Part shown: piece after piece, positions 39,501 to 56,111 of the stretch | Layout: the number at the start of each line of letters is the position of its first letter | Position numbering within the stretch: the first letter of the stretch is position 1 | Source of the DNA: a virus | Lineage: Duplodnaviria > Caudoviricetes | Direction: 5' to 3' (one strand) | DNA: 57,882 nucleotides | IMG/VR virus record: IMGVR_UViG_3300036885_000119 | Location: 1 to 57,882 of that record | The notes under the pieces: model-generated | The model's input: the letters and a program-made list of their open reading frames with translations, nothing else | What the model was told of the DNA's origin: nothing | Database searches by the model: none | Made by a program: the position numbers and the translations under genes

Positions 39501-39774
39501 TGGATGGCATTATTTATTAATTCAATATAATAACGGCACTAATAGCAGCCAAGTTAGCGTAGACCTTGGAGCGCCGGTTGTTTTTTCTGCTATAGGGCGA
39601 TTTAATACACAGATTGAAACAGGATTTATTTTTATGCCACATTGTTTACATTCAATCTTTGATCTTCGAGTATTTAATTTGAATGGAGCAGCTTACCCTA
39701 TGCTTGAATCAACTTTAACATACTACTACAATGACGTTTTGGCTGGTGGAAACAGGACGCTATCACAGGCATGA
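33571..39774 (+). CDS. giant tail protein (nozzle-like scaffold with beta-propeller repeat insertion and C-terminal LamG-like domain)
   Basis: 2067 aa; many VAVG..G.I.TS.DG..WT repeats; C-terminal WHYLLI...IFDLRVFN. Confidence 0.65.
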   Translation: MARRTFEKRSRAQNQEPITRMRDQFFGETSDMPGAAIDKKFQLSLVNQVCYGSFVKSRDGITDRQDDNMGLPPLFGANPGSYYTISSMSQLGTTVTVVGYSFTSADIGKFVCYDNKDGYFNGSNAAIYQTAKITDVGVGTANNTCTVDLPQTVTSRIGQFKYPLNGQWFNAYNQKNIVHVGTTLYQCSPGDYSWAAITQVGVSPIPNCKTIIRDNDNLVVLIPDNDPFGNSSPTNLYLGIWIIDTENNQYWKAAENNTAYPQYSVDAPLKNCTDAPITNGYNRRYLYTKSRFVGDSSNYPIFANRNISTENELQHESGAQQFGPTIKDPDYTLLGTATANGQLYGQLTFYPTISYFTPGSTYAFALAESGAAAKTILFNMSTITPVTIDTIRDSIAPGIISYFPDILVETNSNNSGVPIGAIRLTTTVNYLSYFTSPTVQPISGTNWLNGETGNPGALLSDNGAQTNGKLICYPSLSNFTPGGTYEFDLPVYVNTNTWSPKTGTNLGNHYAVCYGNGIYVAVGPGLIQTSTDGNSWTTRLSGTFSSILYAVAYYSYQGVQKFVAVGQGGVILISDSTGTTWTQKTSNTTRDLKGIAQGYAGKLVAVGGRDIATSADAGNTWAKTTINPCAIVYNGTNLYVIVGPSGLIQTSPDETTWYTQTSGTTKNINAIIWDGTNFVAVGDYGTIITSTNGTAWIIRSSGQISNLKSVAFANSTYVAVGDLATIVRSSDLVTWTGIVPFTPMDFTSITHYTGIWVAVGRNSTGYHVNIVFSKQSDASAWGGYTFLPQNYNLNSVTADSNGNITVVGDDGIIASVLASLIMGDDSVFQIRTSGVTANLNSVTNYTNILIAVGDSGKVTTSTNSTTWTPKTTNITDNLICVAYGNAKYIATTDKGIMYDSSDATTWTLKTTATIGGSFRGIVYTSQYVIVGDAGTVFTSADALTWTKRSLPIANNLLALTYGNSLYITVGSGGAIFTSDDAITWESQQSGITTDLFSIAYGNALFRASGNGGKIISSADGITWGAEVSGVTSDLNSIIFVNSASDFATIGFLISGSSTPVFLISGPQWDNVQIAFILSDQDPVTINSLIDSFASIITSRYPDITITQATDGTGAWIQAILIATTVHQLNYLTNSVVPDVSGAGRLNANSIANGALLVDLTTVAAKYFNDNLSPNTSGTACDPATHYSVYGTEDINTNDVLTVGNDPNAFALLDDIPIMKAFYGDGSTSGLQITSGTDIGTFTTKQGHFTTADVGRIMPIVWQWPYGTAFGYYLAWAKILSLVSGSTTSVNIQLTIDGVNPFTLFTFIDPSYCYDYLKAWATIESHWIFDCSLSGKTMTVNHIWSTNKSGINGTALQNYTLGSYAPYVLTPQVGEQCFLDYGDIRIVTTYDSIAQTITVDANFATEAAACMAFRAMNWSYLDSYTDAEISPKIGNFGIKTRFMRAIPWDGSSRFCGEMLPGFLIASCNISYYYSELPNNYRYLIGDYDPNHQTDKVSEPITAFSSHSDAVGIFSLKSCHVVQTNLDIDFTDESNGMIVRVLPPPKIIGENNGCDGMDELCKIDAGLYAVILYKTADICLFDGNSFGDSLSLGKIRNKIFKLFERTIDYDPQYGLFVRGNDLSGLCYENNRFYYIILPGMFAIGQGEFNDLPLGEMGVHFINNKFSYLYNALIMSKTGDSVPVRAVPGEFFRFNYAAIDNSNMYDDYYYTLCIMAPITSTHITSDDTGTSQAFFIEQMESHIFLNPDKSNIDPVGGVSFIDSVPGSSYPVTPLTIAMTAQNDIGQTVTVSSMVGNNDDINFDLKVRGHRIRYSITFNGAGWQMTGLLSYYKSSDKRTPTNSGDTEHTSQAVILSPVAGIGRTSQLLSLASGNVLQGMTTLGVGALSTIARILGPDGNTYSAYVNIGQVGLCIPSIIDMTNHAFAIGFWYNPAAATSANGIVIESLFLPYQSTISIDGVTGKLIAHDPADPDDSVTIPTSGWHYLLIQYNNGTNSSQVSVDLGAPVVFSAIGRFNTQIETGFIFMPHCLHSIFDLRVFNLNGAAYPMLESTLTYYYNDVLAGGNRTLSQA

Positions 39775-45069: not shown

Positions 45070-46346
45070 ATTACCACGGGCACAAGGCCCGTGGCTTTAA
45101 ACAACAGGCATCGAGCAGGTATCGCAGTTATGCAACACCATCTCAATAGTACCCGGTTTTCTGGGGGATTTACTTCTCCCCGTATCTATCGAGTTCAACC
45201 CGATAGACATAGAACGTCCTGCAATATTCTTGCTGGCGTTCCAATCCGCGTCTGCGGTATAACCGCAGCTCGTACATTTGAACAAAAAACCGTCCCTGTT
45301 GGATTTGTCAATATGACCGCATCTATGACACATACGAGAAGTATTCTTGGGAGAAACAACCTCCACAGAAACACCCTTGGAAGCAGCCTTATAAGTAACA
45401 CAAAACGTGAATTTTCCATAAGGCCAACGGTTAATCCTACTTCTAAGAGTTTTACCTTTACTCTTAGAGGCTTCTCGTATGTTAGACAAATCCTCAAGAA
45501 CAATTTTTCTTGCACCAACAGAATCAGCCCAATTTACAAGTCTCTTAGAAGCAACATGCACCGCATGTTCAGTTACGGAAGCCTCATGCCCCGACATTCT
45601 CCGAAGGAGTTGTCGAGACGATCTGGTTCCAACTGCTTGTACTTTGGCTCTGGTTCTTCTGATGTTGGAAAGTTTGTTGTTCAGATGATTAGCTTTATAA
45701 AACAATTTGTTGTTATTGAAGTCAGTTGCAACAAAAAGTCTTTTTATTCCTTGATCAACTCCAATAATAGTTCCAGTAGTAAGTGGTTCTGTAATGTCAA
45801 TTTCATAAGAAAGATTTAAATACCATTGATTTTCTTTAATAAATATTTTAGAATCTTTCCAGTTATCAGGAATTGTTCTGGAATCTTGAAAAGAAATAGG
45901 ATCAGACCAAAGAGTAATATTTTTCTTGGTTCGAGCAAAATCTCTCTTCCAGACAATAGGAATGGATTGCTTTTTGTAAATAGACAGATGCCATTCTTTC
46001 TTTGTCTTTTGAGTTTTATATGCAGCAGAAATGGTTCTGAAAAGAGTACAAGTAAGTTGAGAAGGAAGATTAAATTTCTCACGAACTGTTTTATAGTATG
46101 CTTGTGCAAGTCGGTTAGAATTTATTTCCTTGGTTTCAAAAACAATTTTAGAAAGCCAATTGCAGGCAGAAAGCCAGTGTGGAAGCAACTTATCTGCTTT
46201 ATGCTGACCGGTGAATTTAATTTTCATAGTTCGTATTGTTTTCACAGTTAGTAATATAGTATATTTGTATTGAGAGTAGTTAAACAATTTAACTTGGAGG
46301 ACGCAATTCCTCCACGGGGACAAGCCCCGTGGTTTCCTTGCGTAAA
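45066..46346 (-). mobile_element. IS200/IS605-family tnpB-only element, TAM TGAT
   Basis: Minus-strand left end TTTACGCAAGGAAACCACGGGGCTTGTCCCCGTGGAGGAATTGCG; right end AAAGCCACGGGCCTTGTGCCCGTGGTAATTTAC. Removal restores AAA CAA TCA TGA, an ATGA overlap of the flanking genes. Confidence 0.9.
45097..46245 (-). CDS. tnpB: RNA-guided endonuclease TnpB
   Basis: GVDQG, VLEDL, CHRC...CTSC, ADWNAS; likely start GTG 46245 or ATG 46227. Confidence 0.92.
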   Translation of the reverse strand: MKTIRTMKIKFTGQHKADKLLPHWLSACNWLSKIVFETKEINSNRLAQAYYKTVREKFNLPSQLTCTLFRTISAAYKTQKTKKEWHLSIYKKQSIPIVWKRDFARTKKNITLWSDPISFQDSRTIPDNWKDSKIFIKENQWYLNLSYEIDITEPLTTGTIIGVDQGIKRLFVATDFNNNKLFYKANHLNNKLSNIRRTRAKVQAVGTRSSRQLLRRMSGHEASVTEHAVHVASKRLVNWADSVGARKIVLEDLSNIREASKSKGKTLRSRINRWPYGKFTFCVTYKAASKGVSVEVVSPKNTSRMCHRCGHIDKSNRDGFLFKCTSCGYTADADWNASKNIAGRSMSIGLNSIDTGRSKSPRKPGTIEMVLHNCDTCSMPVV

Positions 46347-46349
46347 ATC

Positions 46350-46850
46350 ATGAAAATAATTCACGGTTTCCGCCTTTCAGCGCCGGAGGTTTCTGGCTAT
46401 CCCGACACGGTAAGAATCTACAATGGAAACACCGGGGATATGCTTCTGTATGAATCTACACGGTTCCGTACCAACCCAAATCCTAATAAACCCAGCACGC
46501 AACAGCCCTGGTATAAGGTATACGCCCAGATAGCACCTACTAACGAGCAAGGCATACCGTGGAAATGTGTCGAGACAATCAAGCGCGGCCGGTGTATTGC
46601 CCTGAATGACGAGGGACCTGTTGCCACGACGGGGCCGGATCCCAATAACGAGGGCAAGGCGTTCGCCACTGCCGTGCTGATCCATTGCGGCTTTTCCGAT
46701 ACATGGCCTGGCTCGATGGCTTGCCAAACGATATTCCCGGCGGATTGGGCCGCATTTATAAGCCATTTCACCCTGGGAGAGTCGGGTATATATATTTTAA
46801 CGGACGAAACAGTAAGCGAGGAAGAACAGACTATTATGGAATCACTTTAA
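46350..46850 (+). CDS. putative endolysin (YkuD/L,D-transpeptidase-like catalytic motif)
   Basis: LIHCGFSDTWPGSMACQ (HxG...SxxC); lysis-module position; true start ATG 46350. Confidence 0.6.
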   Translation: MKIIHGFRLSAPEVSGYPDTVRIYNGNTGDMLLYESTRFRTNPNPNKPSTQQPWYKVYAQIAPTNEQGIPWKCVETIKRGRCIALNDEGPVATTGPDPNNEGKAFATAVLIHCGFSDTWPGSMACQTIFPADWAAFISHFTLGESGIYILTDETVSEEEQTIMESL

Positions 46851-46862
46851 CAAGGAGGACGT

Positions 46863-47096
46863 ATGTCAGGAAATATTGTTGCCGAGGCATTGTTGTTAAT
46901 TGAAAGGCCCATTGCAAAAGCGGTTATTTCGGCCGCTGAGGCCGAACTGAAATCCCTAACGCCGGAGCAAATCAAGGCGGCGGCGGATTGGCTCAATTCC
47001 AAGGTCGGCGGCAACAAGCCGTTCGAGGAACAGGGAATGGAATTTATCATCAAGGGAACAATCGGAATTATTGATTTTCTCGAAACCTTAAAATAA
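46863..47096 (+). CDS. hypothetical protein
   Basis: AGGAGG RBS. Confidence 0.6.
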   Translation: MSGNIVAEALLLIERPIAKAVISAAEAELKSLTPEQIKAAADWLNSKVGGNKPFEEQGMEFIIKGTIGIIDFLETLK

Positions 47097-47105
47097 GGAG
47101 GAAGT

Positions 47106-47363
47106 ATGGGATTGATTCAAGCGGTTGTTGCGTTATGGCAGGGGATGAACGGCCATAAGTTTAACAGTGGGGCGGCGATAACGATTTTATCGTTCGCTTT
47201 CCTAAAGGCATTTACGGCTTTTGGAATGACACCGGATCAAGCTACCAGTGACGCGACATACATTATAGGCGCGGTTGGTGTGGTGATAATGCTGGTAGGA
47301 TATGTGCATCAGTGGTATAAAAGTATTCAAGCAAAAAAGGCGATGACTCCAGCCGCAAAGTAG
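47106..47363 (+). CDS. holin (putative)
   Basis: 85 aa, two TM helices, basic C-terminus; last late gene. Confidence 0.6.
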   Translation: MGLIQAVVALWQGMNGHKFNSGAAITILSFAFLKAFTAFGMTPDQATSDATYIIGAVGVVIMLVGYVHQWYKSIQAKKAMTPAAK

Positions 47364-47382
47364 TTCGGTGGTGAATGAGGAG

Positions 47383-47407
47383 GGGCGGTTTGCTACCGCC
47401 CTTTTTT
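47383..47407 (+). terminator. rho-independent terminator at the convergence of late arm and cassette array
   Basis: GGGCGGT-TTGCT-ACCGCCC-TTTTTT. Confidence 0.8.
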
Positions 47408-47752
47408 ACGTTTCGCAATATCGGAGGCACATGGAGGTTGACCGAAACAACAGTAAATATCCGCGCAGGCCTTAGCTATATTTAATACATCATCCTTAGT
47501 GTACGCCATTTTCGGCTGCGGCTGTGTTGGTGGTTTGTTCGCCACCGCTCCGCGCTTGTTGTAAATGGTTGACCTCCTTTGTTTCGGCGACGCATCTTCC
47601 CAGCCGTCTAAATCAAACCACGTCGCTTCGCCTTTTATCGTGTGACAACCCATTAAATCCTTTGCAACAAAACACTCTCTACGCTCATTGTCGTGCGTTA
47701 TTCCTACGAAACGGAATCCTTCGATGTTGGGGAGGTCTTGTAAATGTTTCAT
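47393..47752 (-). CDS. cassette 16 hypothetical protein (degenerate, chimeric 3' end)
   Basis: ORF follows GTTGCCGG leader; 3' end contains a copy of the cassette-14-type end. Confidence 0.6.
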   Translation of the reverse strand: MKHLQDLPNIEGFRFVGITHDNERRECFVAKDLMGCHTIKGEATWFDLDGWEDASPKQRRSTIYNKRGAVANKPPTQPQPKMAYTKDDVLNIAKACADIYCCFGQPPCASDIAKRKKGR

Positions 47753-47790
47753 TTGCGCCGCCTTTCAATTTTCAAAGCCGGTTTTATTTC

Positions 47791-47934
47791 CGGCAACGTC
47801 TACCGCACTGCGCGAAGTTGCGCTATGGCCACTTCTATATAATTGATAGCCACCTGTAAATCTAATGAGCCACCACGCTCGATTAGAGCAGCAGCGTCTT
47901 TAAGCAAAGCAATTTCGGGCTGTGGTTGTTGGAT
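47791..47934 (-). repeat. attC-like site 15
   Basis: ATCCAAC AACCACAGCCCGAAATTGC...GCAACTTCGCGCAGTGCGGTAGAC GTTGCCG. Confidence 0.75.
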
Positions 47935-48123
47935 GCTCGTTGTCGCGGACTCCATTAATTTTAGTGCGGCCCTATTCATTGGTTTTCCACAATAGCAACA
48001 AAAGTTAAATTCTTTATTCGGTTTGAAGTCGGGGTCACAGTCTGGAAAATAAAGCTCTCTGCCACAGTCCGAAATGAAATCATCTGATCCTTTTTCCATG
48101 CGATGAAGTTTGCATAATTCCAT
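47800..48123 (-). CDS. cassette 15 Cys-rich hypothetical protein
   Basis: MELCK...SDCG...FCCYCGKPM; ATG 48123. Confidence 0.65.
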   Translation of the reverse strand: MELCKLHRMEKGSDDFISDCGRELYFPDCDPDFKPNKEFNFCCYCGKPMNRAALKLMESATTSIQQPQPEIALLKDAAALIERGGSLDLQVAINYIEVAIAQLRAVR

Positions 48124-48162
48124 TTGGCCGCACTCTCTTTCTATGGTTCCGCGACTATGGCA

Positions 48163-48341
48163 TCCCAACGGTTGCCGCACTCGCCCGCCGTGCCGCTATG
48201 ACTGCATATAATGGCCGTGTATCGGACAATCCTTATTGACAACCAATGACACGCACGCACTTACAACCACCTTACCGCGAGTTGTCTTTTGATGCAGGCC
48301 GTTCTCTTTGCAAAGGCATGGCGCGGCTGCGGCTGTTGGTG
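48163..48341 (-). repeat. attC-like site 14
   Basis: CACCAAC AGCCGCAGCCGCGCCATGCC...GGCACGGCGGGCGAGTGCGGCAACC GTTGGGA. Confidence 0.75.
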
Positions 48342-48510
48342 GTTCGTTCGCCACCGCTCCTAATGATTTGAGCGCGTCCCCCATTTTTACGGCCTCAGAA
48401 CTTGACAAAGACATATTTACTTCGATGCCGCCGCTTAAAGTGCTAAGAAAAATAATGCTGCCGCGTTTTTCAATGCTCAACTTGGCGCTTAAACAGTTTA
48501 TAATTTCCAT
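48196..48510 (-). CDS. cassette 14 hypothetical protein
   Basis: ATG 48510 after AAGGAG. Confidence 0.6.
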   Translation of the reverse strand: MEIINCLSAKLSIEKRGSIIFLSTLSGGIEVNMSLSSSEAVKMGDALKSLGAVANEPPTAAAAPCLCKENGLHQKTTRGKVVVSACVSLVVNKDCPIHGHYMQS

Positions 48511-48546
48511 GACGCGCTCCTTATAATTTGGTCGGTGGCGTATGAC

Positions 48547-48659
48547 CACCAACGCGTGCGCACCGCACGAAGTGGCGGTCACACGGGTTTAACATTTATG
48601 GTAAGCTCCACTTTGGGGAGCGTCATAGTGACCGACATTTTGTGCTGCGCTTGTTCGAC
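48547..48659 (-). repeat. attC-like site 13
   Basis: GTCGAAC AAGCGCAGCACAAAATGTCGGTCAC...GTGACCGCCACTTCGTGCGGTGCGCACGC GTTGGTG; a second R''-like copy lies at 48714-48720. Confidence 0.7.
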
Positions 48660-48715
48660 GCTGGTGCGTAGGGTGTGCCATTCGTCGTCAGACAAGCGAT
48701 TAGGTGCGCACGCGT

Positions 48716-48958
48716 TCAACGCAAGAGGCGCGCGGTCTTGCGCCGGGCCGCAGGGCCAGAAAGCATACCGCGAGCTTCCTCTGGTTTAAGAGGTCGGCAA
48801 TCTTGCTGCGTTATCCATCCTCTGCTACTTACATCACCTATAACTCTGTAATCCCCACTATTACGAGTGTCCGGTTTGTCATCTACGGCAATTATGGCAC
48901 CAACATAATTTTTGTACCAATAAAAATCACCAGTACATTTTGTTATTTTTACTAACAT
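48716..48958 (-). CDS. cassette 13 hypothetical protein
   Basis: AGGAGG RBS inside the leader inverted repeat. Confidence 0.6.
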   Translation of the reverse strand: MLVKITKCTGDFYWYKNYVGAIIAVDDKPDTRNSGDYRVIGDVSSRGWITQQDCRPLKPEEARGMLSGPAARRKTARLLR

Positions 48959-49003
48959 TGCCGACCTCCTATAAGTGTCTCGCTCTTAGCCCTGCGGACT
49001 TGC

Positions 49004-49119
49004 GTTGAACGTTCGCCACATGAGCGCCGTTATTTTTTTATAATAGATGAGTCTAAAACCCATTCAATTTTCAATGAGTCATATCGTGCAAAATAATGGC
49101 GACTCTGCGGCTGTTGTGC
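49004..49119 (-). repeat. attC-like site 12
   Basis: GCACAAC AGCCGCAGAGTCGCCATTATTTT...AAAATAACGGCGCTCATGTGGCGAAC GTTCAAC. Confidence 0.75.
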
Positions 49120-49257
49120 GGCTGTTTTCGCCGCTTCCAATATTTTTAACCGCGCATTGACTGTATTATACGCATTTTGGTGCAAGGCACCTGCGACACA
49201 CATTACTACTGCCAACACAATATATCCGATTCTTGCAGCCCAGTCTTTTGCGTACAT
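49030..49257 (-). CDS. cassette 12 small membrane protein
   Basis: One N-terminal TM segment; AGGAGG RBS. Confidence 0.6.
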   Translation of the reverse strand: MYAKDWAARIGYIVLAVVMCVAGALHQNAYNTVNARLKILEAAKTAAQQPQSRHYFARYDSLKIEWVLDSSIIKK

Positions 49258-49292
49258 ATTGTTCCTCCTGCGCGGTTTATAATTTGAGGCGG

Positions 49293-49813
49293 AGTTTGAG
49301 AGTCGAGGTAATCATTTTTGGTTCTCAATGTATCGTTGTATGGTTTCTGCTGAGACATTCCCCGCAGTTGCGGCGAAATAACTTCGAGTCCAAAGAGAGG
49401 GGAGCCTTCTTAAAATTGGATATTTATCTCTTAATTCGTGAGAAGTTATTCCTTTACATTCCTTAACAATTTCGTGAGCCGCAGTAGTGGGCCATCCTCG
49501 AACGAATAAATGAACATGGTCTGGCTTTATTGCCAGTTCGAGAACTTCCCACCCTTTATCTTTACATTTTTGCAGGATAAGTGTTCGACAATCTTTTGCA
49601 ATACTACCAACCAAAACAGGCTTTCTCCTTTTCGGTATCCATATAAGATGAAAAACCATTAGGTGTACGCGGTGTTCGTCTCTTTGATATTGCATACTCA
49701 TGTTTATAATATACCATCCATCTACAAGATTGTCAACAACTTTCTCAAATATCTTTGCGGGCCTAACCACCGGGGTTAAAACCCCGTGGATTGCAGCCCG
49801 TCCCCGCGTTCAA
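49293..49813 (-). mobile_element. IS200/IS605-family tnpA-only (probably truncated) element inserted in the cassette 12 leader
   Basis: One end hairpin CCACGGGGTTTTAACCCCGGTGG; no second hairpin; flanked by GGCGG on both sides; removal restores the cassette leader. Confidence 0.8.
49312..49701 (-). CDS. tnpA: Y1 HUH transposase TnpA
   Basis: HLIWIPKRRK, PDHVHLF (HUH), LWTRSYF, IQRYIENQ (catalytic Tyr); TTGACA-17-TATATT promoter at 49708-49736. Confidence 0.95.
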   Translation of the reverse strand: MSMQYQRDEHRVHLMVFHLIWIPKRRKPVLVGSIAKDCRTLILQKCKDKGWEVLELAIKPDHVHLFVRGWPTTAAHEIVKECKGITSHELRDKYPILRRLPSLWTRSYFAATAGNVSAETIQRYIENQK

Positions 49814-49829
49814 GGCGGCGAAAATGCCG

Positions 49830-49964
49830 TCACAACGTTTACGCAACGGTTGAAGTAACTTGCGCACTGCAATCACCTACCGGAAACGAACATATATTAC
49901 CACTCCTACGATCTTTACAAGGAGAATGACAATCGCAAGTTATTTTAACCTTGCGTTGTTGCAC
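49830..49964 (-). repeat. attC-like site 11
   Basis: GTGCAAC AACGCAAGGTTAAAATAACTTGCG...CGCAAGTTACTTCAACCGTTGCGTAAAC GTTGTGA. Confidence 0.78.
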
Positions 49965-50135
49965 GGGGCGCTTCGCCCGAACTGTTCGGCCCGCTTCCGC
50001 TGCATTCAGGGCGGCACATATTTTATGCGCGCTGTGCTTTACTTTGCAAACGCAGAGGCTAAAAGCTCGCTTCACTTCGTCAACGTACCATGTCTCATTT
50101 ATTCCAGGAATAACCTGATACTTTTTGCCGCCCAT
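49839..50135 (-). CDS. cassette 11 hypothetical protein
   Basis: ATG 50135 after AAGGA; reads through its attC. Confidence 0.6.
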   Translation of the reverse strand: MGGKKYQVIPGINETWYVDEVKRAFSLCVCKVKHSAHKICAALNAAEAGRTVRAKRPVQQRKVKITCDCHSPCKDRRSGNICSFPVGDCSAQVTSTVA

Positions 50136-50162
50136 ATAAAATCCTTTCAAGGGCCGAATTGC

Positions 50163-50193
50163 GTGCAACGTGCGCCGTACTGCACGATGTTTG
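50163..50193 (-). repeat. truncated attC-like site 10 (right arm only)
   Basis: CAAACATCGTGCAGTACGGCGCAC GTTGCAC with no upstream AAC or left arm. Confidence 0.6.
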
Positions 50194-50634
50194 CTAGGTC
50201 GCTTCCTCTGTTTTGGGCGCGACCTGTCTTGTCATTGTTTTTTCTATTCCGTCTTTTTCTTGCCCAAGCAAATCAATTTTTGCTTGAACATCTGCCATCA
50301 ATTTTATTTTGTTTTTGTTTTCTTCAGTTGCTTCGTACAAATTTTCGTATCGTTGTTTCGACCGTCCCTTCTGGTCGTCAACAACCCAGGCGTGCCATCC
50401 GTTCTCGAAAAAAACAGAAGTTACGGTATATGTTTTCCACTGTTCACCGGTTCGATACGAATGATATTTTATAATAACATCGAAACGCTTGAAATCTTTT
50501 TTGTCTAAATCATCTATTCGCTTTCTCACTTTTTCCAATTCTTTGTTTTTGTAATCAGAATCTCCGATGCGAACAGTAAACTCGAAATTAAGTTCAGAAA
50601 ACTTGATTATGAAGCCTTTGTATTCTTCTTGCAT
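50194..50634 (-). CDS. cassette 10 hypothetical protein
   Basis: 146 aa; AAGGAG RBS. Confidence 0.7.
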   Translation of the reverse strand: MQEEYKGFIIKFSELNFEFTVRIGDSDYKNKELEKVRKRIDDLDKKDFKRFDVIIKYHSYRTGEQWKTYTVTSVFFENGWHAWVVDDQKGRSKQRYENLYEATEENKNKIKLMADVQAKIDLLGQEKDGIEKTMTRQVAPKTEEAT

Positions 50635-50682
50635 TTTCTTCTCCTTGTCGCGCCCTATTAATTTCAGAGCGGCCTAAATTGT

Positions 50683-50831
50683 GTACAACGGTTCAGGCAC
50701 CCGCCCGAAGTTGCCGCGCCCACGTTTCGATTGCGCACTGAACAACTGACGGATCGGTTATTGTTGTAACTTTTGCAGCACACTCCATTGACGTCGCTAT
50801 GTCGGCAATTTTGTCGCTGCGGTTGTTGGCT
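50683..50831 (-). repeat. attC-like site 9
   Basis: AGCCAAC AACCGCAGCGACAAAATTGCCG...CGGCAACTTCGGGCGGGTGCCTGAACC GTTGTAC (arms partly mismatched). Confidence 0.65.
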
Positions 50832-51019
50832 GCCGGTACTCCGGGAACTGTAGCGGCCAACTCCGATGCGTCTGGAGGTTGCAATCCCGGCACGTTAGCA
50901 ATGATGTGAGTACGTATAAATCTATAAATTCTGCCAAGGTCGGAAACGGTGCAACGCTCCAAATCTTCGTTAATATCCTCAATAAATTTCGCTTTATAAT
51001 CGAAGTCTGTTTTTTCCAC
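50693..51019 (-). CDS. cassette 9 hypothetical protein
   Basis: GTG start after AGGAGG. Confidence 0.55.
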   Translation of the reverse strand: MEKTDFDYKAKFIEDINEDLERCTVSDLGRIYRFIRTHIIANVPGLQPPDASELAATVPGVPAANNRSDKIADIATSMECAAKVTTITDPSVVQCAIETWARQLRAGA

Positions 51020-51058
51020 TTGTAACCTCCTATTTGTAACGCTCTTGGCCGCTATTGC

Positions 51059-51123
51059 AGCCAACGTGCGCCGTTATGCGCTGGCCGGGGTAGTTTCCGG
51101 CTTGCGTATAGCGGCTGTTGTAA
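51059..51123 (-). repeat. attC-like site 8
   Basis: TTACAAC AGCCGCTATACGCAAGCCGG AAACTACC CCGGCCAGCGCATAACGGCGCAC GTTGGCT. Confidence 0.8.
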
Positions 51124-51370
51124 GCCCGTTGTCAACCGCTCCGCTTTTTCTGGCGGCGCATAACTGCTCTATGAAATTAATGATGTCCTTCAAACAACCA
51201 TCGTTAAATATTGTATCCGAAATTGGATAAAAACAGTATGTTCGCCACGCCGAATACCATTTAATTTCACCTAAAAACCCGTTGGTGCGCTTATTGTGGA
51301 TTGACCAACGGCTGGTCTTCCCGGTATCTCCCAGGCACATAAAGCAGATATACTGGTATTCGGTTCTCAT
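51074..51370 (-). CDS. cassette 8 hypothetical protein
   Basis: MRTEYQYI...LGEIKWYSAWRTYCFYP...IFNDGCLKDI; ATG 51370. Confidence 0.7.
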   Translation of the reverse strand: MRTEYQYICFMCLGDTGKTSRWSIHNKRTNGFLGEIKWYSAWRTYCFYPISDTIFNDGCLKDIINFIEQLCAARKSGAVDNGLTTAAIRKPETTPASA

Positions 51371-51404
51371 GCGCCGCCCTTTCAATGGTCGGTTGACTAA
51401 TGGC

Positions 51405-51489
51405 TTACAACGTTCGCGCAACTCGCATGATGCGCGATATAATAAAATCAACAATCCTCTAATCGCGTTTCATGCTTGCGCTGTTGTTG
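51405..51489 (-). repeat. attC-like site 7
   Basis: CAACAAC AGCGCAAGCATGAAACGCGAT...ATCGCGCATCATGCGAGTTGCGCGAAC GTTGTAA. Confidence 0.8.
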
Positions 51490-51650
51490 GCTGTACAGCG
51501 CACCTCCATAATTTTCTGCCGCGCTTTATCTACTATTGCGTACCAGTAGAAAATTACAAATGCACGTGGGAAGCCTGACCAAAAATGCCATTTGCCGCAA
51601 TGCGGATAATTGCAAAATGACTTACTTTCTTTAATAAAACCCTGCCACAT
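51459..51650 (-). CDS. cassette 7 small protein
   Basis: GAGG RBS; 63 aa. Confidence 0.55.
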   Translation of the reverse strand: MWQGFIKESKSFCNYPHCGKWHFWSGFPRAFVIFYWYAIVDKARQKIMEVRCTANNSASMKRD

Positions 51651-51698
51651 AAAAACCTCTCTTAGCGTGGCCTATAATTTTAAGGTGCGCCGTATTGA

Positions 51699-51778
51699 CT
51701 ACAACGTGTGCCGCTTGTTGACGTTTTAATGTTGCTACGACTGCATTAGGCCCGCACCCCAACAAGCGGCTGTTGGTG
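51699..51778 (-). repeat. attC-like site 6
   Basis: CACCAAC AGCCGCTTGTTG...CAACAAGCGGCACAC GTTGTAG. Confidence 0.75.
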
Positions 51779-51815
51779 GCCTGTAAACCAAGCTACCTTG
51801 ATTTTCTGCCGGGCG

Positions 51816-52172
51816 TTAAAATGGTAACTCCTCAAAATCATCATCGTCGTCGTATTGGTATTTATGGGCGGCGGCGAATTCCGCATCTTCGAGCGCCTTG
51901 ACGGTTCCTTTTTGACGTGGAGTCCATTCATCGGGATTAAGTTTTTTAATTTCTTCAACCTCACTTTTTAAACCTGAAAGCATGCACTGCGCCTGAGTAC
52001 GTTTTGAAGCTTCGGACTTTGCCATTTGGTATTGCCGTACTGCTTCATCTGCAAGGCGCTGTGCGGTCTTTCTTAGCTCGTTCGCCGCCGCCGGAGTAGT
52101 AGCTTCGTTGGAGAGCGATACTTCAAAATGGCAGTAGTCGAACGATAACATTATTTTTACGCTTGCACTCAT
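51816..52172 (-). CDS. cassette 6 hypothetical phage protein
   Basis: ASVKIMLSFDYCHFEVSL...LRKTAQRLADEAVRQYQMAK; acidic tail ending DDFEELPF. Confidence 0.7.
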   Translation of the reverse strand: MSASVKIMLSFDYCHFEVSLSNEATTPAAANELRKTAQRLADEAVRQYQMAKSEASKRTQAQCMLSGLKSEVEEIKKLNPDEWTPRQKGTVKALEDAEFAAAHKYQYDDDDDFEELPF

Positions 52173-52224
52173 TGAATGATCCCTTCTAAGCGCCCGGCCT
52201 ATTATTCCGAGCTTGGTTTATGAA

Positions 52225-52360
52225 CACCAACGGTTCGCTAAACGGCTGATAGTTGCCGCATCCGCTCGATAAACTCTCCAACCATTAACGGCAATTCTCG
52301 CTGAGGGATAGCATCAACCTTGACAACGAGAGCGGCAATTTCAGCCTTTAGCTGTTGTGC
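52225..52360 (-). repeat. attC-like site 5
   Basis: GCACAAC AGCTAAAGGCTGAAATTGCCGC...GCGGCAACTATCAGCCGTTTAGCGAACC GTTGGTG. Confidence 0.8.
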
Positions 52361-52474
52361 GCTGTTGGCAATTTCTACAACACGTTCCAGAGCTTGCCAT
52401 GCGTCCAAAGCCTCTTTAACATTACCAGTGATATATGCTACCCTACCAAGGTCTCTAAATTCACTAATGTCCAT
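52238..52474 (-). CDS. cassette 5 hypothetical protein
   Basis: ATG after AAGGAG; about half of the ORF lies inside its attC. Confidence 0.55.
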   Translation of the reverse strand: MDISEFRDLGRVAYITGNVKEALDAWQALERVVEIANSAQQLKAEIAALVVKVDAIPQRELPLMVGEFIERMRQLSAV

Positions 52475-52513
52475 TGGCAAGCTCCTTTCAAATTAAGAGA
52501 AATTGACAATTGC

Positions 52514-52586
52514 GTACAACGTCCGATGCATGGCGAAGTGCGGTACTCCGCATTTGGGGGTACTCCCCGCCATGCATTTGTTAGGC
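52514..52586 (-). repeat. attC-like site 4
   Basis: GCCTAAC AAATGCATGGCG...CGCCATGCATCGGAC GTTGTAC; the ORF stop TAA lies in the R'' box, as in classical cassettes. Confidence 0.8.
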
Positions 52587-52901
52587 GATGTTCTCCACCG
52601 CTTCCTTAGTGTCTTGCGGCGCGTCTTGATTTTCTTCTGTCCATTCCAACCGATCTGTAACTTGATGGTCAACGTGCCGATATGCTAATCCGTCTATCAA
52701 ATCTTTAGGATAGGGAATGTCCGATGCACGGCTTTTGTGTTGCGCATACGCTTCTGATTCGGTAAACAAATGAGCGTTGTCGAGATTGCACGTATACCCT
52801 GACCGCCCCTTACCCCACCACAACAAACAGTTCCCAACAACCTGACGAGCGTCACGCAAATAATAAAGCCGTTCGGGATTTAATGTCTTTCTTGTTTTCA
52901 T
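52581..52901 (-). CDS. cassette 4 hypothetical phage protein
   Basis: YYLRDARQVVGNCLLWW...GYTCNLDNAHLFT...DIPYP. Confidence 0.7.
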   Translation of the reverse strand: MKTRKTLNPERLYYLRDARQVVGNCLLWWGKGRSGYTCNLDNAHLFTESEAYAQHKSRASDIPYPKDLIDGLAYRHVDHQVTDRLEWTEENQDAPQDTKEAVENIA

Positions 52902-52960
52902 GGTTTTCTTTCTTGGTTTTCGCGCCGCCTATAATATCTGGCTTTGCGGTGGAGAATTTC

Positions 52961-53050
52961 GCCTAACGTGTGCCGCACTCGCCAGATGACGCGGCCTATA
53001 AAAAACTACTCCGCCAGTGCTGCCGCGTTTTCTGGCTGCGGCTGTTGTGC
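52961..53050 (-). repeat. attC-like site 3
   Basis: GCACAAC AGCCGCAGCCAGAAAACGCGGC...GCCGCGTCATCTGGCGAGTGCGGCACAC GTTAGGC. Confidence 0.8.
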
Positions 53051-53359
53051 GATAGTTGCAGCCGACTCCTTATTTTCAGGGGTCGAAATAACTTTGCAAA
53101 GAGGAAACTCCCAATCTCTTAAAAAGGCTCTCTGCAAATGCTGCATACTATCCATCCATTCCAACTTTAAACCAGGAACATAAATTGACTTAGTATAAAG
53201 CATCAGATAAAGCTCGTGATGCTTAACGACCATCATTTTAACACCAAGGTACTCAACAAAAGAACCAACTGGAGCAAAGACTTCCACTGCTTTCAAGCGT
53301 TTGCAGAGAGCCTCCCATTCTTCGTCAACTTTAGGAACCGACTTTTTGAACGGCCACAT
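53006..53359 (-). CDS. cassette 3 hypothetical protein
   Basis: MWPFKK start; stop lies in the attC loop. Confidence 0.65.
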   Translation of the reverse strand: MWPFKKSVPKVDEEWEALCKRLKAVEVFAPVGSFVEYLGVKMMVVKHHELYLMLYTKSIYVPGLKLEWMDSMQHLQRAFLRDWEFPLCKVISTPENKESAATIAQQPQPENAAALAE

Positions 53360-53397
53360 TTCGACCCCCTATAATATTTGATCTCGGCTGCAATTTT

Positions 53398-53537
53398 GCA
53401 CAACGTTTGACAAAGGGCGAAGTTAAACCGGATCGTATACCTTACACTTTGTATTGCAACAAAAACCTTCTTGACGAACAAAAGCACAATCTGAAAGCCG
53501 GGAGCAAGGTTTAATTTCGTCACTTTGTTTGTTGGCT
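53398..53537 (-). repeat. attC-like site 2
   Basis: AGCCAAC AAACAAAGTGACGAAATTAAACC...GGTTTAACTTCGCCCTTTGTCAAAC GTTGTGC. Confidence 0.8.
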
Positions 53538-53692
53538 GCGGCTACTGCCGGAACTGTAGCGGCCAACTCCTCTGAATTGAGCGCGGCGTTGTTTGGCACA
53601 AAACAATTGATAGCTATTACAACGCATCTATTGCACGGAAATTCAGATGAAAAACCGGAAACATATTTACACTTATCGCAAATTTGATTCAT
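53423..53692 (-). CDS. cassette 2 Cys-rich hypothetical protein
   Basis: CDKC...PCNRC; AGGAG RBS. Confidence 0.6.
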   Translation of the reverse strand: MNQICDKCKYVSGFSSEFPCNRCVVIAINCFVPNNAALNSEELAATVPAVAAANKQSDEIKPCSRLSDCAFVRQEGFCCNTKCKVYDPV

Positions 53693-53732
53693 AAGCCGCG
53701 CTCCTATTTATAACGCTCTTGGCCGCTATTGC

Positions 53733-53823
53733 AGCCAACGTTCCCCGCATGTGTGCTGGTTGCGCCTATAAACAAGGAAAATCCGCTAACAACTGCGCAA
53801 CTGGCATACTGCGGGTGTTGGCA
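53733..53823 (-). repeat. attC-like site 1
   Basis: TGCCAAC ACCCGCAGTATGCCAGTTGCGC...GCGCAACCAGCACACATGCGGGGAAC GTTGGCT. Confidence 0.8.
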
Positions 53824-54410
53824 GATGTAAAGCCGGATTCCTTATTTTCTGGTGCGCCCATTTGTATTCCGTCTTTTATTTCGTTCCCGAAAGCATCCCA
53901 TCCGCTACGCTTGCGCCGGGCAAACATTTCCAAGTACGGCCCTGGCATAGACTCGCAAAAGTGATAGATTGACTCCGGCTTTCGGGAATGAAATAGATTT
54001 TCAGAAAGAAGTCCAATAAAGCCATTGGGGGGCGGCTTGGGGCTTCCACGCCTACCGATAAGCACCGGTTCAGTACAGCCACGAATCCAGAAACCGATAC
54101 CATACGGCACCTTAATTTCCAATACACCCCAAAGGTTTGTTGAAACACTCGTAACTTTTACCCACGGAAAGCCGGTAACATAATCAAAGCCCCAAGCCTG
54201 CATTAGCGGCAAACAATCTTCCGCAAGTTTTGGCCATGTCGCCCACATTACCAACACGCAATCAGGATCGGTAAATTCGGACACCGGAAGTTGTTTCATA
54301 TCCGAAAGCGACATGGTAGAATACTGGTTTGCCGCCGCCCCCCGACACCCGGAATTAGAATAACTCCACGGTGGATCAGCTAAAATGACTTTGTATTTAT
54401 GGGCGCACAT
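53766..54410 (-). CDS. cassette 1: MT-A70 family N6-adenine methyltransferase
   Basis: VILADPPW, LVMWATWP, WGFDY, GFWIRGCTE, HSRKP, YLEMFAR...GWDAFGNE. Confidence 0.92.
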   Translation of the reverse strand: MCAHKYKVILADPPWSYSNSGCRGAAANQYSTMSLSDMKQLPVSEFTDPDCVLVMWATWPKLAEDCLPLMQAWGFDYVTGFPWVKVTSVSTNLWGVLEIKVPYGIGFWIRGCTEPVLIGRRGSPKPPPNGFIGLLSENLFHSRKPESIYHFCESMPGPYLEMFARRKRSGWDAFGNEIKDGIQMGAPENKESGFTSANTRSMPVAQLLADFPCL

Positions 54411-54436
54411 ATAATCTCGCTCTCCGGCTTTATTTC

Positions 54437-54455
54437 TGCCAACTAGCTATTAGAT
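54437..54455 (-). promoter_or_regulatory. attI-like simple site at the head of the array
   Basis: ATCTAAT-AGCTA-GTTGGCA: L-like box, 5-nt spacer, GTT core, no upstream hairpin. Confidence 0.65.
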
Positions 54456-54468
54456 GATCTATATATAA

Positions 54469-54678
54469 CTATCTCAATGATTTTACGTATCTTTCGGAAA
54501 GACCTAATTTTATCAATTTTTCCTTTGCTGCTTCTTTTAAAAAATGTCCTGCCGATCCGCTTTTCCTTTTGCAGTTAGGATATTTTACGGAATGTAATCG
54601 GCATACCTTGGAAAATTCCAACGACATTAGCACAGTCACTAATGTCATCGCATCGTATGCTTTTGATTGTTTTACCAT
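54469..54678 (-). CDS. small basic protein directly upstream of the attI-like site (possible RHH-like regulator)
   Basis: 69 aa; SAGHFLKEAAKEKL helix; preceded by a very AT-rich promoter-like tract (54680-54742). Confidence 0.55.
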   Translation of the reverse strand: MVKQSKAYDAMTLVTVLMSLEFSKVCRLHSVKYPNCKRKSGSAGHFLKEAAKEKLIKLGLSERYVKSLR

Positions 54679-54861
54679 TTTAATTACCTATATATAAATA
54701 TAATACTAATAATAATAAAAACCTAATTTATTTTATTTATTTTTACGGCCTCGCGCCCAGCACCCAACAACCCGCCAGCAGTACACCCGCCACTGGCAGC
54801 AGTATGACTATCGCCCAAAACATGAGCGTCCAGGCGATGCGGTCAATGTTGTAGTTCGGTT

Positions 54862-55086
54862 TTACCATGTACCTGATCCTCCAGGACTACGCCGCTCAGT
54901 CTCAATCAACTTTTTAACCTTGGGCGTTGTAGATTCCACATGGTTATGCTCTACCAAATCACTTGTATATAGGCGCGGTTGTGCTTTTTTATCAAATATG
55001 CACCACACAACCATGCCGCACTTTTTACATTTGTCAATATGGCCGTGTCGGTCAAGAAAGGCGTGGATGGTAGGTTCGGAAATCAT
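54862..55086 (-). CDS. small Zn-finger-like hypothetical protein
   Basis: CKKCG...H..H. Confidence 0.55.
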   Translation of the reverse strand: MISEPTIHAFLDRHGHIDKCKKCGMVVWCIFDKKAQPRLYTSDLVEHNHVESTTPKVKKLIETERRSPGGSGTW

Positions 55087-55090
55087 AGCT

Positions 55091-55136
55091 TAGACGGCAG
55101 GGAAACCACACGGCTTTAGCCGCAGTGGATTGTTAC
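55091..55136 (+). mobile_element. solo-hairpin IS200/IS605 remnant (46 bp)
   Basis: TAGACGGCAGGGAAACCACACGGCTTTAGCCGCAGTGGATTGTTAC: left-end-type start, one hairpin, right-end-type TTAC. Confidence 0.7.
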
Positions 55137-55471
55137 AACGTTTTCTGTTTTTTTAATATATGCGTTATCGCTTTTATGGTCTCGTTTTTGCCTTTTTTTA
55201 TTAGAAATTGTTTTGCTAGCTTAAATGTTGCAGCAACAGAAAGTTCGCAAACACCTCCGACATAAGCCCCGCCCGTATAGCATGAGCATAAATAGTTTTG
55301 TTTTGATGCAACTGTTTTTCCTTTTTCATTTATATAAAGTTGCCCGTGTATTCCCCACCAATGACCGTACATTTTAAATTTACGGTAGCACCGGATAGAA
55401 ATAAATTTATTTGTACCAGCAAGGTTTATTTTCATATTACCATCCTTATCTGCGTTGTTTTTACTAGCCAA
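55133..55471 (-). CDS. hypothetical protein
   Basis: ORF in the early operon; true start may be the internal MKINL. Confidence 0.55.
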   Translation of the reverse strand: MASKNNADKDGNMKINLAGTNKFISIRCYRKFKMYGHWWGIHGQLYINEKGKTVASKQNYLCSCYTGGAYVGGVCELSVAATFKLAKQFLIKKGKNETIKAITHILKKQKTL

Positions 55472-55656
55472 TACCGTTTGTAGTTCTGACCCGGTTCAAA
55501 CTCACCGACAATCATTTTGCCCTCTGGAAGCAGCTCGGCGTTGATGCGGCTGTTGATCCTGCGTAACTCAGTAGAGTGGTATAACCGCAACGCCTCTAAT
55601 ACTGTAAGAGATTCACCGCGCAGGTAGTGGGCAAGTATTTCAGATTGTGGATTCAT
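55432..55656 (-). CDS. winged helix-turn-helix protein
   Basis: ILAHYLRGESLTVLEAL...L...SRI...YKRYWL. Confidence 0.7.
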   Translation of the reverse strand: MNPQSEILAHYLRGESLTVLEALRLYHSTELRRINSRINAELLPEGKMIVGEFEPGQNYKRYWLVKTTQIRMVI

Positions 55657-55940
55657 GGTTTCCCCTTGTTAAACAATAGCGACATACAATCTAACTCATC
55701 CCGTAAGGTGTAAATTTTTGAGCCTCTCCACCAAATCTTCAGCGCCAGTTGTCCAGGCCGAAGCTTTTTCTTGCCGCTCTTGATCTCCGCTAGATACGTA
55801 ACGTCGCGAAATCCTATTGCAATATCAGGGGCGCTTTCACCGAGTGCGGATAAATCAAACACTGTTGCCCCCAATTTTTGCAGGCAGTGTACGATAGCTG
55901 TGTGGTTTTCGTCTTTGCGTGAGAAGGCGTAGCTTTTCAT
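55653..55940 (-). CDS. PD-(D/E)xK nuclease (VRR-NUC/resolvase-like)
   Basis: DENH..IV...PDIAIG...LAEIKS...LRPGQ. Confidence 0.75.
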   Translation of the reverse strand: MKSYAFSRKDENHTAIVHCLQKLGATVFDLSALGESAPDIAIGFRDVTYLAEIKSGKKKLRPGQLALKIWWRGSKIYTLRDELDCMSLLFNKGKP

Positions 55941-56111
55941 TCCTCCACCACCTCAATTTTCTCCACATATTTTAACGGCGATTGCCCGCGCTTGTTGTCA
56001 ACCTGTTCCTGTAGCCACTCCGTGATGGTTGGCTTGGCCGCTTTCGGGAAGTCTTTGGGATAGTGTAGTATAATTTTCATCTTGCCCGCCGCTGGTTGAA
56101 GGTTGCGCCTG

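Follow-up and report, generated by a model that had tools for sequence, protein, structure and literature searches.

A probable integron-type array of mobile one-gene cassettes in the early region of a phage genome

The attC sites of integrons are arranged around G|TTRRRY (PMC9892861), and clusters of attC sites lacking an integrase (CALINs) have already been published from virulent phages, with 17 CALINs in total and 2–4 sites in each (Qi et al. 2023; PMC9892861). On the bacterial side, sedentary chromosomal integrons store anti-phage defence cassettes (bioRxiv 10.1101/2024.07.02.601686), and in T4-type phages, the regulatory cassettes called PeSLs, which combine a strong sigma-70-like early promoter with a terminator stem-loop, recombine by homology (PMC2839356, PMC4122927). 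Here, we analyze an array of 16 hairpin-bounded, one-gene units in the IMG/VR virus record IMGVR_UViG_3300036885_000119, a linear sequence of 57,882 nt with an estimated completeness of 74%, the whole of which is referred to below as the window. We consider it likely that the early arm of this phage, which encodes no integrase, holds mobile cassettes of one gene each in an array of the integron type; our best reading is a CALIN-type array with sites of a family other than that of the attC sites used for comparison. A first-pass annotation, made from the sequence alone, had described integrons mainly as residents of bacterial chromosomes and plasmids, a statement that the integrase-less phage clusters (PMC9892861) had already made out of date.

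The plus strand of the window encodes the terminase, the portal, and very large tail-type proteins, and the minus strand carries primase-helicase genes; both the GC skew and the AT skew change sign at ~47 kb, and every plausible gene from 47.4 kb to the right end of the window lies on the minus strand. The terminase has its nearest relatives in Bacteroides and Flavobacterium phages, and with an identity of no more than about 37% these are simply a lead to the host. A megablast comparison of the array with named phages gave no match, and an Rfam scan returned two subthreshold chance matches and nothing else. Of the 20 runs (17 studies) in which the stretch occurs, all of them peat or permafrost metagenomes, 9 may be the source itself.

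The array (~47.4–54.45 kb; 47393–54443, minus strand, transcribed from right to left in window coordinates) was delineated from its open reading frames (ORFs), its AAC/GTT cores, and the matches to the covariance model R1 described below. Its 16 AAC cores lie at 47795, 48167, 48551, 49008, 49834, 50167, 50687, 51063, 51409, 51703, 52229, 52518, 52965, 53402, 53737, and 54441, with AAC-to-AAC distances of 289–704 nt, except for one unit of 826 nt that contains a 526-nt IS200-type element. Along the plus strand, each GTT is followed by an arm and then by one minus-strand ORF, beyond which come a second arm that terminates in AAC, a hairpin, and the next GTT. Because the genes are on the minus strand, the plus-strand AAC corresponds to GTT on the coding strand, where it closes the hairpin that follows the ORF; the exchange point is at this AAC, and therefore each hairpin belongs to the gene whose 3′ end abuts it. 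Defined by breakpoints, a cassette thus comprises the leader arm, the ORF, the arm with its AAC, and the hairpin, and ends at G|TT. The first-pass annotation was correct in recognizing 16 co-oriented, hairpin-bounded units with one gene each, in agreement with the 16 AAC cores, the 15 hairpins, and the confinement of R1 matches to the array; it had placed the start of each unit at the plus-strand GTT, so that its unit phase was off by one hairpin. The ORFs often continue past the arm and the core into the hairpin, doing so in two different frames, or have their stop within the core, and for this reason the conservation of these segments is at the level of nucleic acid.

In its general plan, the locus resembles the phage CALINs as presented in the main account of that work (PMC9892861): there is one ORF per unit followed by an imperfect AAC...GTT hairpin, and there is no phage integrase. 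The co-orientation of the array, the apparent insertion at its head, and the DNA methyltransferase cargo are likewise shared with phage CALINs and integrons. The array differs from the CALINs described there in size (16 units compared to 2–4 sites), in its recurrence in many environmental phage contigs, including one of 202 kb, and in that cassette turnover is visible directly in natural populations.

Fifteen AAC...GTT hairpins were identified in the window, with spacers of 20–165 nt; 13 of these are strong, and the R1 matches at 50157–50222 and 52219–52366 are weak. The hairpins have a common base, in which AAC and the next G pair with T-GTT, so that a G.T pair adjoins the core, followed by a 3-nt bulge on the 5′ side, a 6-bp helix, and a variable, often long imperfect stem. 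The helix sequences vary among the hairpins and their complementarity is kept. Given that the hairpin loops do not align, RNAalifold predicted no pairs from a MAFFT alignment; model R1 was accordingly built from the 13 strong hairpins with only 11 basal pairs annotated, supplied by hand. A detector combining a regular expression with folding recovered only ~60% of the known sites and was not used. In the window, all 15 R1 matches fall inside 47785–53829 on the plus strand, with none in the other ~50 kb and none on the minus strand. Across 15 sources (259,924 nt), R1 produced 47 matches, clustered and co-oriented within each contig, with one weak stray exception (E=0.98).

Relatives among viruses were sought with a structured DNA pattern derived from the hairpin base, which matched 7 stretches in viral contigs, and then with R1, which identified co-oriented arrays in the contigs G002, G004, and G005 and in one 4.3-kb contig. 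Two high-GC contigs without R1 arrays, G001 and G003, were treated as chance pattern matches and rejected as array carriers; since G003 has no array by R1, the integrase that it encodes is irrelevant. Among 26 records with a related terminase, G007 alone has an array, of 10 sites, and R1 found no array sites in four complete terminase relatives. The 69-aa gene at the array head led to G005 alone, and the 173-aa gene to the left of the array led to no relatives. G002 (62,880 nt, direct terminal repeats, 100% complete, 56% GC) has all genes in the same direction and its array at the genome end, partly inside a 3.4-kb terminal repeat, the length of which was obtained from duplicated matches; from this position, the array would be among the first DNA to enter the cell and be expressed.

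A scan of metagenome contigs with a second pattern yielded at least 120 stretches, and the figures given here cover 80 loci (269,518 nt) among the matches listed. R1 identified at least 208 sites in this set; sites were located in 61 of the 80 loci, on one strand per locus in all 61, with up to 10 sites per locus and a median cassette of 336 nt. One locus, a 10.4-kb part of a 202,460-nt metagenome contig (L216), has four array hairpins adjoining genes for NAD synthase, nicotinate phosphoribosyltransferase, class II ribonucleotide reductase, dUTPase, and a GH108 lysozyme. The presence of these NAD salvage, nucleotide metabolism, and lysis genes on a 202-kb contig suggests a jumbo phage, which probably carries the same cassette system.

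In the enlarged set, every one of 108 aligned sites has AAC and GTT, and 106 of them have the G.T pair beside the core; spacers of 44–169 nt were counted. Over 111 sites, in an alignment whose fitting to R1 favours the structure, 97.2% of the helix cells pair, compared to 78.4% after shuffling and 32–55% with slid partners, and all 6 pairs of the inner helix show double compensatory changes. The covariation that was to be checked in the hairpins is therefore present. Two other explanations for such hairpins were considered and rejected. In a tandem array of inverted-repeat transposons, the pattern would be otherwise, given that here the halves of a hairpin covary with each other and the hairpin travels with one gene; a small element inserted in terminator palindromes fails in that the complementary arms flank the gene and not the hairpin. 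Separately, contigs from three runs match the base of hairpin 2 while skipping its 124-nt apical part (48192–48317), so that the loop may vary within a population while the base is kept.

The second structural feature is the complementarity of the two ends of each cassette. About 22 nt after each GTT pair, across the gene, with about 22 nt before the next AAC, as two helical stretches on either side of a small mismatch that is conserved. Of the 14 adjacent pairs of GTT and AAC arms in the window, 12 have the true partner as the top scorer among all 15 AAC arms, with a mean score of 7.7 for adjacent compared to 2.0 (sd 1.3) for nonadjacent arms. The pairing fails in unit 1, the GTT arm of which is a 96% copy of that of unit 3, and scores are low in units 7, 8, and 15, the latter two having an extra small hairpin inside the arm. 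The adjacent arm ranks first in 32 of 46 pairs across five viral arrays. Among adjacent pairs of the metagenome arrays, 98 of 136 score above the 99th percentile of random partners; for arms facing each other across one hairpin, which belong to different cassettes, only 2 of 197 do so. Thus, the rule that a cassette end matches its own opening rather than that of its neighbour, proposed in the first-pass annotation, extends to the other viral and the metagenome arrays. Own-end pairing is a circular-permutation signature that is general across the arrays. In integron cassettes, the known own-end match amounts to 7 bases, and the pairing in the phage cassettes extends well beyond this.

Mobility of the cassettes can be followed in natural variants, for which we used assembled Logan contigs from four other runs (X10, X11, X13, and X16) covering 46000–56000, where parts of the array left uncovered in some runs are no evidence of absence. 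Cassette 3 is precisely missing in three runs (X10, X11, and X13), in which a joint 48164->48549 skips 384 nt between the AAC cores of cassettes 2 and 3 with 6 shared letters; the X11 contig lacking it (3464 nt) spans 46611–48164 and 48549–50458 and otherwise differs from the window by three letters. Another joint, 53400->54440, connects the AAC of cassette 14 to the last AAC with 4 shared letters, with intervening DNA being possible. Cassette 13 alone (exactly 52518–52968) is embedded in foreign sequence in X13 (3405 nt, depth 22.8) and X11, and cassette 11 alone (exactly 51702–52231) is found in X16 (depth 29.9, foreign flanks) and X11, the contigs with these single cassettes in unrelated sequence having a higher depth. 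Past base 54443, an X11 contig enters new hairpin-type sequence instead of the head junction and therefore has an extra cassette at the array head. Contigs from X10 end at 48170, 48549, 51066, 52232, 53740, and 54442, positions that a branching of the assembly graph at the cores would produce. Some flanks differ up to the base before AAC and others from the base that follows it, which together limit the exchange to these 3 nt.

Exchange between phages follows the same boundaries. Cassette 14 (window 52961–53409) is 97.3% identical over 449 nt to its counterpart in G005, with the homology starting at 7 bases that end in the AAC core and ending 5 bases after the next AAC core, and the backbone proteins common to the two genomes are only 47–49% identical; as judged from these sequences, the cassette was transferred horizontally between phages. 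Across arrays, 23 of 77 internal ends of homology blocks (≥90% identity) lie within 8 nt of an AAC core, compared to 2.1% expected, and 24 of 40 left ends fall at AAC cores when the bins are widened. Many right ends lie inside the 3′ parts of ORFs, because a recurrent ~150-nt module of hairpin plus arm is joined to different ORFs in the metagenome loci. The prediction that cassettes shift by site-specific exchange at the G/TT core, and that related contigs would show gain and loss there, is thus supported by near-identical variants that lose or gain whole cassettes with breakpoints inside the AAC triplet (G|TT on the coding strand), by the near-identical cassette in a phage with a diverged backbone, and by the recurrence of this architecture, which 4 further viral contigs and 61 metagenome loci display.

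The breakpoints also bear on an alternative explanation, in which the repeats are expression signals and the cassettes, like T4-type PeSLs, are shuffled by homologous or microhomology recombination with the aid of phage annealing proteins. There are resemblances: in the published descriptions (PMC2839356, PMC4122927), PeSLs separate small early ORFs of unknown function in a hyperplastic region, the motifs bound gene gain, loss, and replacement, and PeSL minicircles have been proposed. The array studied here is in an early, hyperplastic-looking arm, the complete G002 encodes RecT, a RecQ-like helicase, and an SbcC-like ATPase, a Sipho_Gp157 match is present at the window edge, conserved stretches such as a 12-nt run ending in GTTG could act as microhomology, and some homology ends lie away from the cores. 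Nevertheless, breakpoints are at the 3-nt AAC core and not at the longer GTT-side run (23 ends compared to 3), so that exchange occurs at one triplet on one hairpin side, and cassette 3 was lost with only 6 shared letters. In simple consensus scans, neither sigma-70-type promoters (12 found, 11.6 expected) nor terminator-like sites (9 found, 8.4 expected, none on the coding strand) are enriched, which differs from PeSLs as described in those papers. Furthermore, PeSL-like recombination gives no reason for the self-complementarity of cassette ends, in which these cassettes also differ, or for the bias in strand folding described next. We therefore regard this explanation as unlikely.

The first-pass annotation had proposed folding the bottom strands, and the noncoding strand is indeed favoured, being the more stably folded one at 39 of the 52 viral sites and, in the metagenome set, at 176 of 199 (Wilcoxon p=2e-26); in the metagenome arrays, the longest ORF is on the opposite strand in 106 of 132 cassettes. 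In a positive control comprising attC sites beside bacterial intI genes, the bottom strand was the more stable one in 19 of 28. The strand preference also weighs against an explanation at the RNA level, according to which the arms would be, for example, RNase III processing stems, the hairpins would stabilize mRNA ends, and modularity would be a by-product of selection to keep stem pairs intact. The arms do bracket each ORF with a covarying ~22-nt pairing that includes an internal loop, and peat metatranscriptome runs include part of the stretch; yet it is the complement of the mRNA that folds into the better structure, the conserved core-adjacent G.T pairs would be A.C mismatches in mRNA, and the exact loss and gain of cassettes at one triplet is not predicted. 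Such an origin of the repeats appears highly improbable.

The searches for a local enzyme of the array were negative. The tyrosine recombinase family (PF00589) is absent from the window at E<=1 and from G002, which is 100% complete, G004, G005, and G007; serine recombinases (PF00239) are likewise absent from the latter four. Among the 67 scanned ORFs of G002 (from 74 of at least 90 aa, after exclusion of two crossing piece boundaries and five terminal-repeat duplicates), there is no recombinase family, and the scan yielded RecT, RecQ-like helicase, HNH, and SbcC-like proteins. Across the 80 metagenome loci (269,518 nt), tblastn gave no IntI-like match. The observation that no tyrosine recombinase is encoded near the array thus holds for the window and for a complete relative, and the intI gene that adjoins the array in a complete integron is missing.

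A transposition enzyme within the array belongs to the IS200-type insertion in cassette 5 (49283–49808, minus strand, 526 nt), which encodes a Y1 transposase (ORF 49312–49770; PF01797, E=4.5e-35) behind a strong sigma-70-like promoter (TTGACA-17-TATATT with TG). The element is polymorphic: in X10, X11, and X13, a joint 49282->49809 replaces its 526 nt with one A. This TnpA is a polymorphic passenger and not the enzyme of the array. Two TnpB/OrfB-type genes are located outside the array, at 485–1624 (plus strand) and 45097–46323 (minus strand), matching phrog_506 with E=7.5e-99 and 1.3e-42, respectively; a TnpB family is also shared with three metagenome array loci, and a locus (L261) has an IS607-type serine recombinase and TnpB pair beside its array. 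Elements of the IS200/605/607 kinds seem to gather in or near arrays. Y1 (HUH) transposases act on single-stranded hairpins, and mobilization of the cassettes by such an enzyme, in the manner of palindrome-associated or REP-type elements, could be imagined from the tnpA in cassette 5, the two TnpB genes, and the IS607-type pair; it is the least credible alternative, given that no Y1 transposase (PF01797) is encoded in G002, which is complete, G004, or G005, that the element is a discrete insertion missing from natural variants, and that its end hairpin is, by eye, unlike the array hairpins.

The preferred reading, that of an integron-type array, can be spelled out as follows. On the coding strand, a cassette begins just inside the GTT core with the leader arm, a ribosome-binding site, and one ORF, continues with the second arm ending in AAC and paired with the leader arm, and finishes with an imperfect hairpin of 50–170 nt that closes at the next GTT. 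As the natural variants show, exchange occurs inside this closing GTT (plus-strand AAC), at the position and with the polarity of G|TT in the R′ box of attC; at this triplet, the array loses whole cassettes or acquires them at its head, and cassettes pass from phage to phage. As with the attC bottom strand, it is presumably the noncoding strand that folds. We infer a circular intermediate, in which the cassette's own ends would extend the hairpin stem by ~20 bp and which would explain the complementarity of these two ends. The recombinase would be supplied in trans, the likeliest candidate being a structure-recognizing tyrosine recombinase of the integron-integrase kind from the host; an unrecognized phage protein appears less likely than a host enzyme.

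The comparison with integron attC sites is consistent with this scheme in several respects. The crossover at the coding-strand G|TT, the location of this point at the 3′ end of the hairpin, and the favoured folding of the noncoding strand are shared, and attC sites beside intI genes display the same layout as the phage hairpins, with AAC-G paired, then a bulge of 3–4 nt, then a helix. The sites differ from the attC consensus as given in the text of PMC9892861 in the four bases after GTT, which in the phage arrays are GNNN and not RRRY, and from attC sites in having a core stem of ~5 bp, but with ~20 further bases of the cassette's own ends able to pair. A host for comparison was suggested by the IS transposase, the nearest relatives of which are encoded in metagenome-assembled genomes of Chloroflexota (65–74% identity, one of them from a peat experiment), a weak lead; R1 found nothing in 5 genomes following this lead, with 150 candidates scored per genome. 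Integron integrases above the NCBIfam curated cut-off are present in 37 of 101 sampled genomes of the candidate host order (probably Chloroflexota; G037–G136, the order of G032). The cassette arrays beside intI in this order carry attC sites of ~60 and ~120–140 nt, and from 7 of the attC sites beside intI genes in this one order, the best-matching host candidate, we built a second, home-made model, R2, which detects further attC sites in intI loci, some of ~140 nt, a size outside the training set. In pdif-type modules, each module is flanked by 28-bp XerC/XerD sites in inverted orientation; judged by their consensus, one arm bears some resemblance to such sites, but the arms in general do not.

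A number of observations weigh against the integron-type reading. R1 finds nothing in 12 regions beside intI genes of the candidate host order, and R2 matches none of the 5 phage arrays at E<=1, reaching no more than 11.8 bits even when its filters are off, so that neither model detects the sites of the other; the possibility that the phage sites are the host order's own attC type was rejected on this basis, and the check by an attC covariance model that the first-pass annotation had suggested did not, with this single-order model, recognize the phage sites. R1 also finds nothing in TJE1 and P12002L, carriers of phage CALINs published in PMC9892861. Single-base bulges in the intI-linked attC sites are on the other half of the hairpin than in the phage sites, and the core stem is only ~5 bp long in the array form. 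No enzyme for the array was recognized in cis, and the window itself is estimated to be only 74% complete. Of the 77 internal homology ends, 3 are at GTT cores and 51 at neither core. Cassettes 8 and 15 (compared over 50680–51080 and 53395–53755, respectively) share a GTT-side arm with the extra small hairpin, the leader, and the AAC-side arm at 84–94% identity, with unrelated ORFs and unrelated hairpins; neither this pattern nor the hairpin-plus-arm module on different ORFs is explained by exchange at AAC cores alone, which also does not produce the few homology blocks that begin at a GTT core (G004 versus L208 and L238). Finally, no circular cassette junction was found in the assembled contigs, which cannot show rare forms. 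With respect to the shared arms, in chromosomal integrons, too, one attC type is reused on unrelated genes, a long-known and unexplained phenomenon that the patterns of cassettes 8 and 15 and of the module resemble.

A bolder interpretation of the same array, as a phage-side counterpart of the integron in which four features hold jointly, is possible and is offered here tentatively. The hairpins would constitute a distinct, widespread site family unseen by models of the attC sites compared; the cassette's own ends would pair over ~25 bp in the circular form; the recombinase would be something other than a recognizable integron integrase encoded in cis, namely a phage protein of an unknown kind or a host enzyme for which structure suffices as the signal; and the array would serve as a shufflable library of counter-defence early genes in virulent phages up to jumbo size, containing orphan C5, N4/N6, and MT-A70 methyltransferases, radical-SAM enzymes, and many small unknowns.

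The array of the window, in which all features are on the minus strand, can be described from its head in the direction of transcription. An AT-rich stretch (54679–54745), seen in the sequence upstream of the 69-aa gene, is a candidate promoter region for the array. The 69-aa gene (54469–54678), which has no Pfam match, directly precedes the array in both the window and G005, with 49% identity to the same-position gene. The attI-like head junction (54441–54468) consists of the last AAC core and non-hairpin sequence up to the stop codon of this gene, with ~25 nt conserved with the G005 head (a TATATA stretch, then AATA-2 nt-TA beside GTTG, on the coding strand); the last hairpin is also similar in the two arrays. 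Cassette 16 (53739–54442) encodes an MT-A70 DNA methyltransferase (ORF 53766–54410; PF05063, E=3e-23) and has a hairpin at 53737–53819 (R1, 62.6 bits) and arms, at 53817–53837 and 54423–54443, that are 90% complementary. It is followed by cassette 15 (53404–53738; ORF 53423–53692; hairpin 53402–53533), with both arms and the 5′ leader in common with cassette 8, cassette 14 (52967–53403; ORF 53006–53359; hairpin 52965–53046), which is the one present in G005, and cassette 13 (52520–52966; ORF 52581–52901; hairpin 52518–52582), with arms 91% complementary. Cassette 12 (52231–52519; ORF 52238–52480) has a weak hairpin (52229–52356; R1 30.7 bits, E=1.6e-5), and its arm pair ranks first. Cassette 11 (51705–52230) contains ORF 51816–52172 and hairpin 51703–51774, cassette 10 (51411–51704) contains ORF 51459–51650 and hairpin 51409–51485, and cassette 9 (51065–51410), whose arms are 86% complementary, has an ORF listed as 51074–51454 and a hairpin at 51063–51119.

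Cassette 8 (50689–51064; ORF 50693–51064; hairpin 50687–50827) precedes cassette 7 (50169–50688; ORF 50194–50634), with a short degenerate hairpin (50167–50212; R1 18.8 bits, E=0.021) and a weak arm match. Cassette 6 (49836–50168; ORF 49839–50168; hairpin 49834–49960) is next to cassette 5 (49010–49835; ORF 49030–49257; hairpin 49008–49115), which has the insertion sequence in its 5′ leader and arms that pair across 680 nt. The remaining units are cassette 4 (48553–49009; ORF 48716–48958; hairpin 48551–48654), cassette 3 (48169–48552; an ORF ending at 48196; hairpin 48167–48337), which natural variants lack, cassette 2 (47797–48168; ORF listed as 47800–48180; hairpin 47795–47930; R1 71.5 bits), and, at the distal end, cassette 1 (47393–47796; ORF 47393–47752). 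There is no R1 match to the left of 47785, that is, no model-supported hairpin to the left of cassette 1; a bidirectional terminator-like hairpin is located at ~47383–47405. Outside the array, the late region includes two very large plus-strand ORFs, 25977–30686 (1569 aa), with 47% identity over 574 aa to a G005 protein, and 33571–39774 (2067 aa).

Apart from the MT-A70 methyltransferase, the 13 other cassette ORFs of the window that were scanned or inspected belong to no family. Across arrays, the recurrent cargo comprises C5 cytosine methyltransferases (12 loci), N4/N6 methyltransferases (8 loci), radical-SAM proteins (12 loci), and a 130–160-aa family without annotation (11 loci). The radical-SAM family (window 12742–13656, plus strand; L019 2225–3190; L113 12248–13438) is encoded by a backbone gene in the window and in G002 and by an array cassette in G004 and G007; the same kind of gene can thus sit inside or outside an array. 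G002 (L010–L013) additionally encodes glycosyltransferases, a DegT-type aminotransferase, an FkbM-type methyltransferase, and a Mom-family protein together with its radical-SAM genes, a gene set that suggests DNA hypermodification. Judging from gene content, we infer that the array keeps early accessory genes as a library that can be shuffled, and that the many DNA-modification genes among them would act against host restriction.

The features that appear to be new are a site family that is distinct and occurs widely, the extended pairing between the ends of one cassette, the array size, and the turnover that can be observed directly; in the papers covered by our literature search, supplementary files aside, we found no description of any of them. 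The closest bacterial parallel, the sedentary chromosomal integrons (bioRxiv 10.1101/2024.07.02.601686), have in common with the phage arrays their large size, small and mostly unknown cassettes, attachment of similar sites to unrelated ORFs, and a place in the conflict between phage and host. As portrayed in that preprint, they are bacterial, adjoin intI, and hold defence genes, whereas the array described here is in a phage, has no integrase, and carries DNA-modification genes that resemble counter-defence.

Because the sites are short (~100 nt) and the exchange point is known to three bases, candidate recombinases are directly testable. The R1 site model provides a way to find such arrays in metagenomes, and the cassettes amount to a ready list of candidate anti-restriction and anti-defence genes. 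If the integron-type reading is true, virulent phages would renew their accessory early genes by means of integron-like, site-specific cassettes and not solely by illegitimate or homologous recombination, which would offer a concrete mechanism for the 'hyperplastic regions' and the turnover of ORFans in phage genomes, and a phage-side store of counter-defence genes would mirror the bacterial integrons that hold anti-phage defences.

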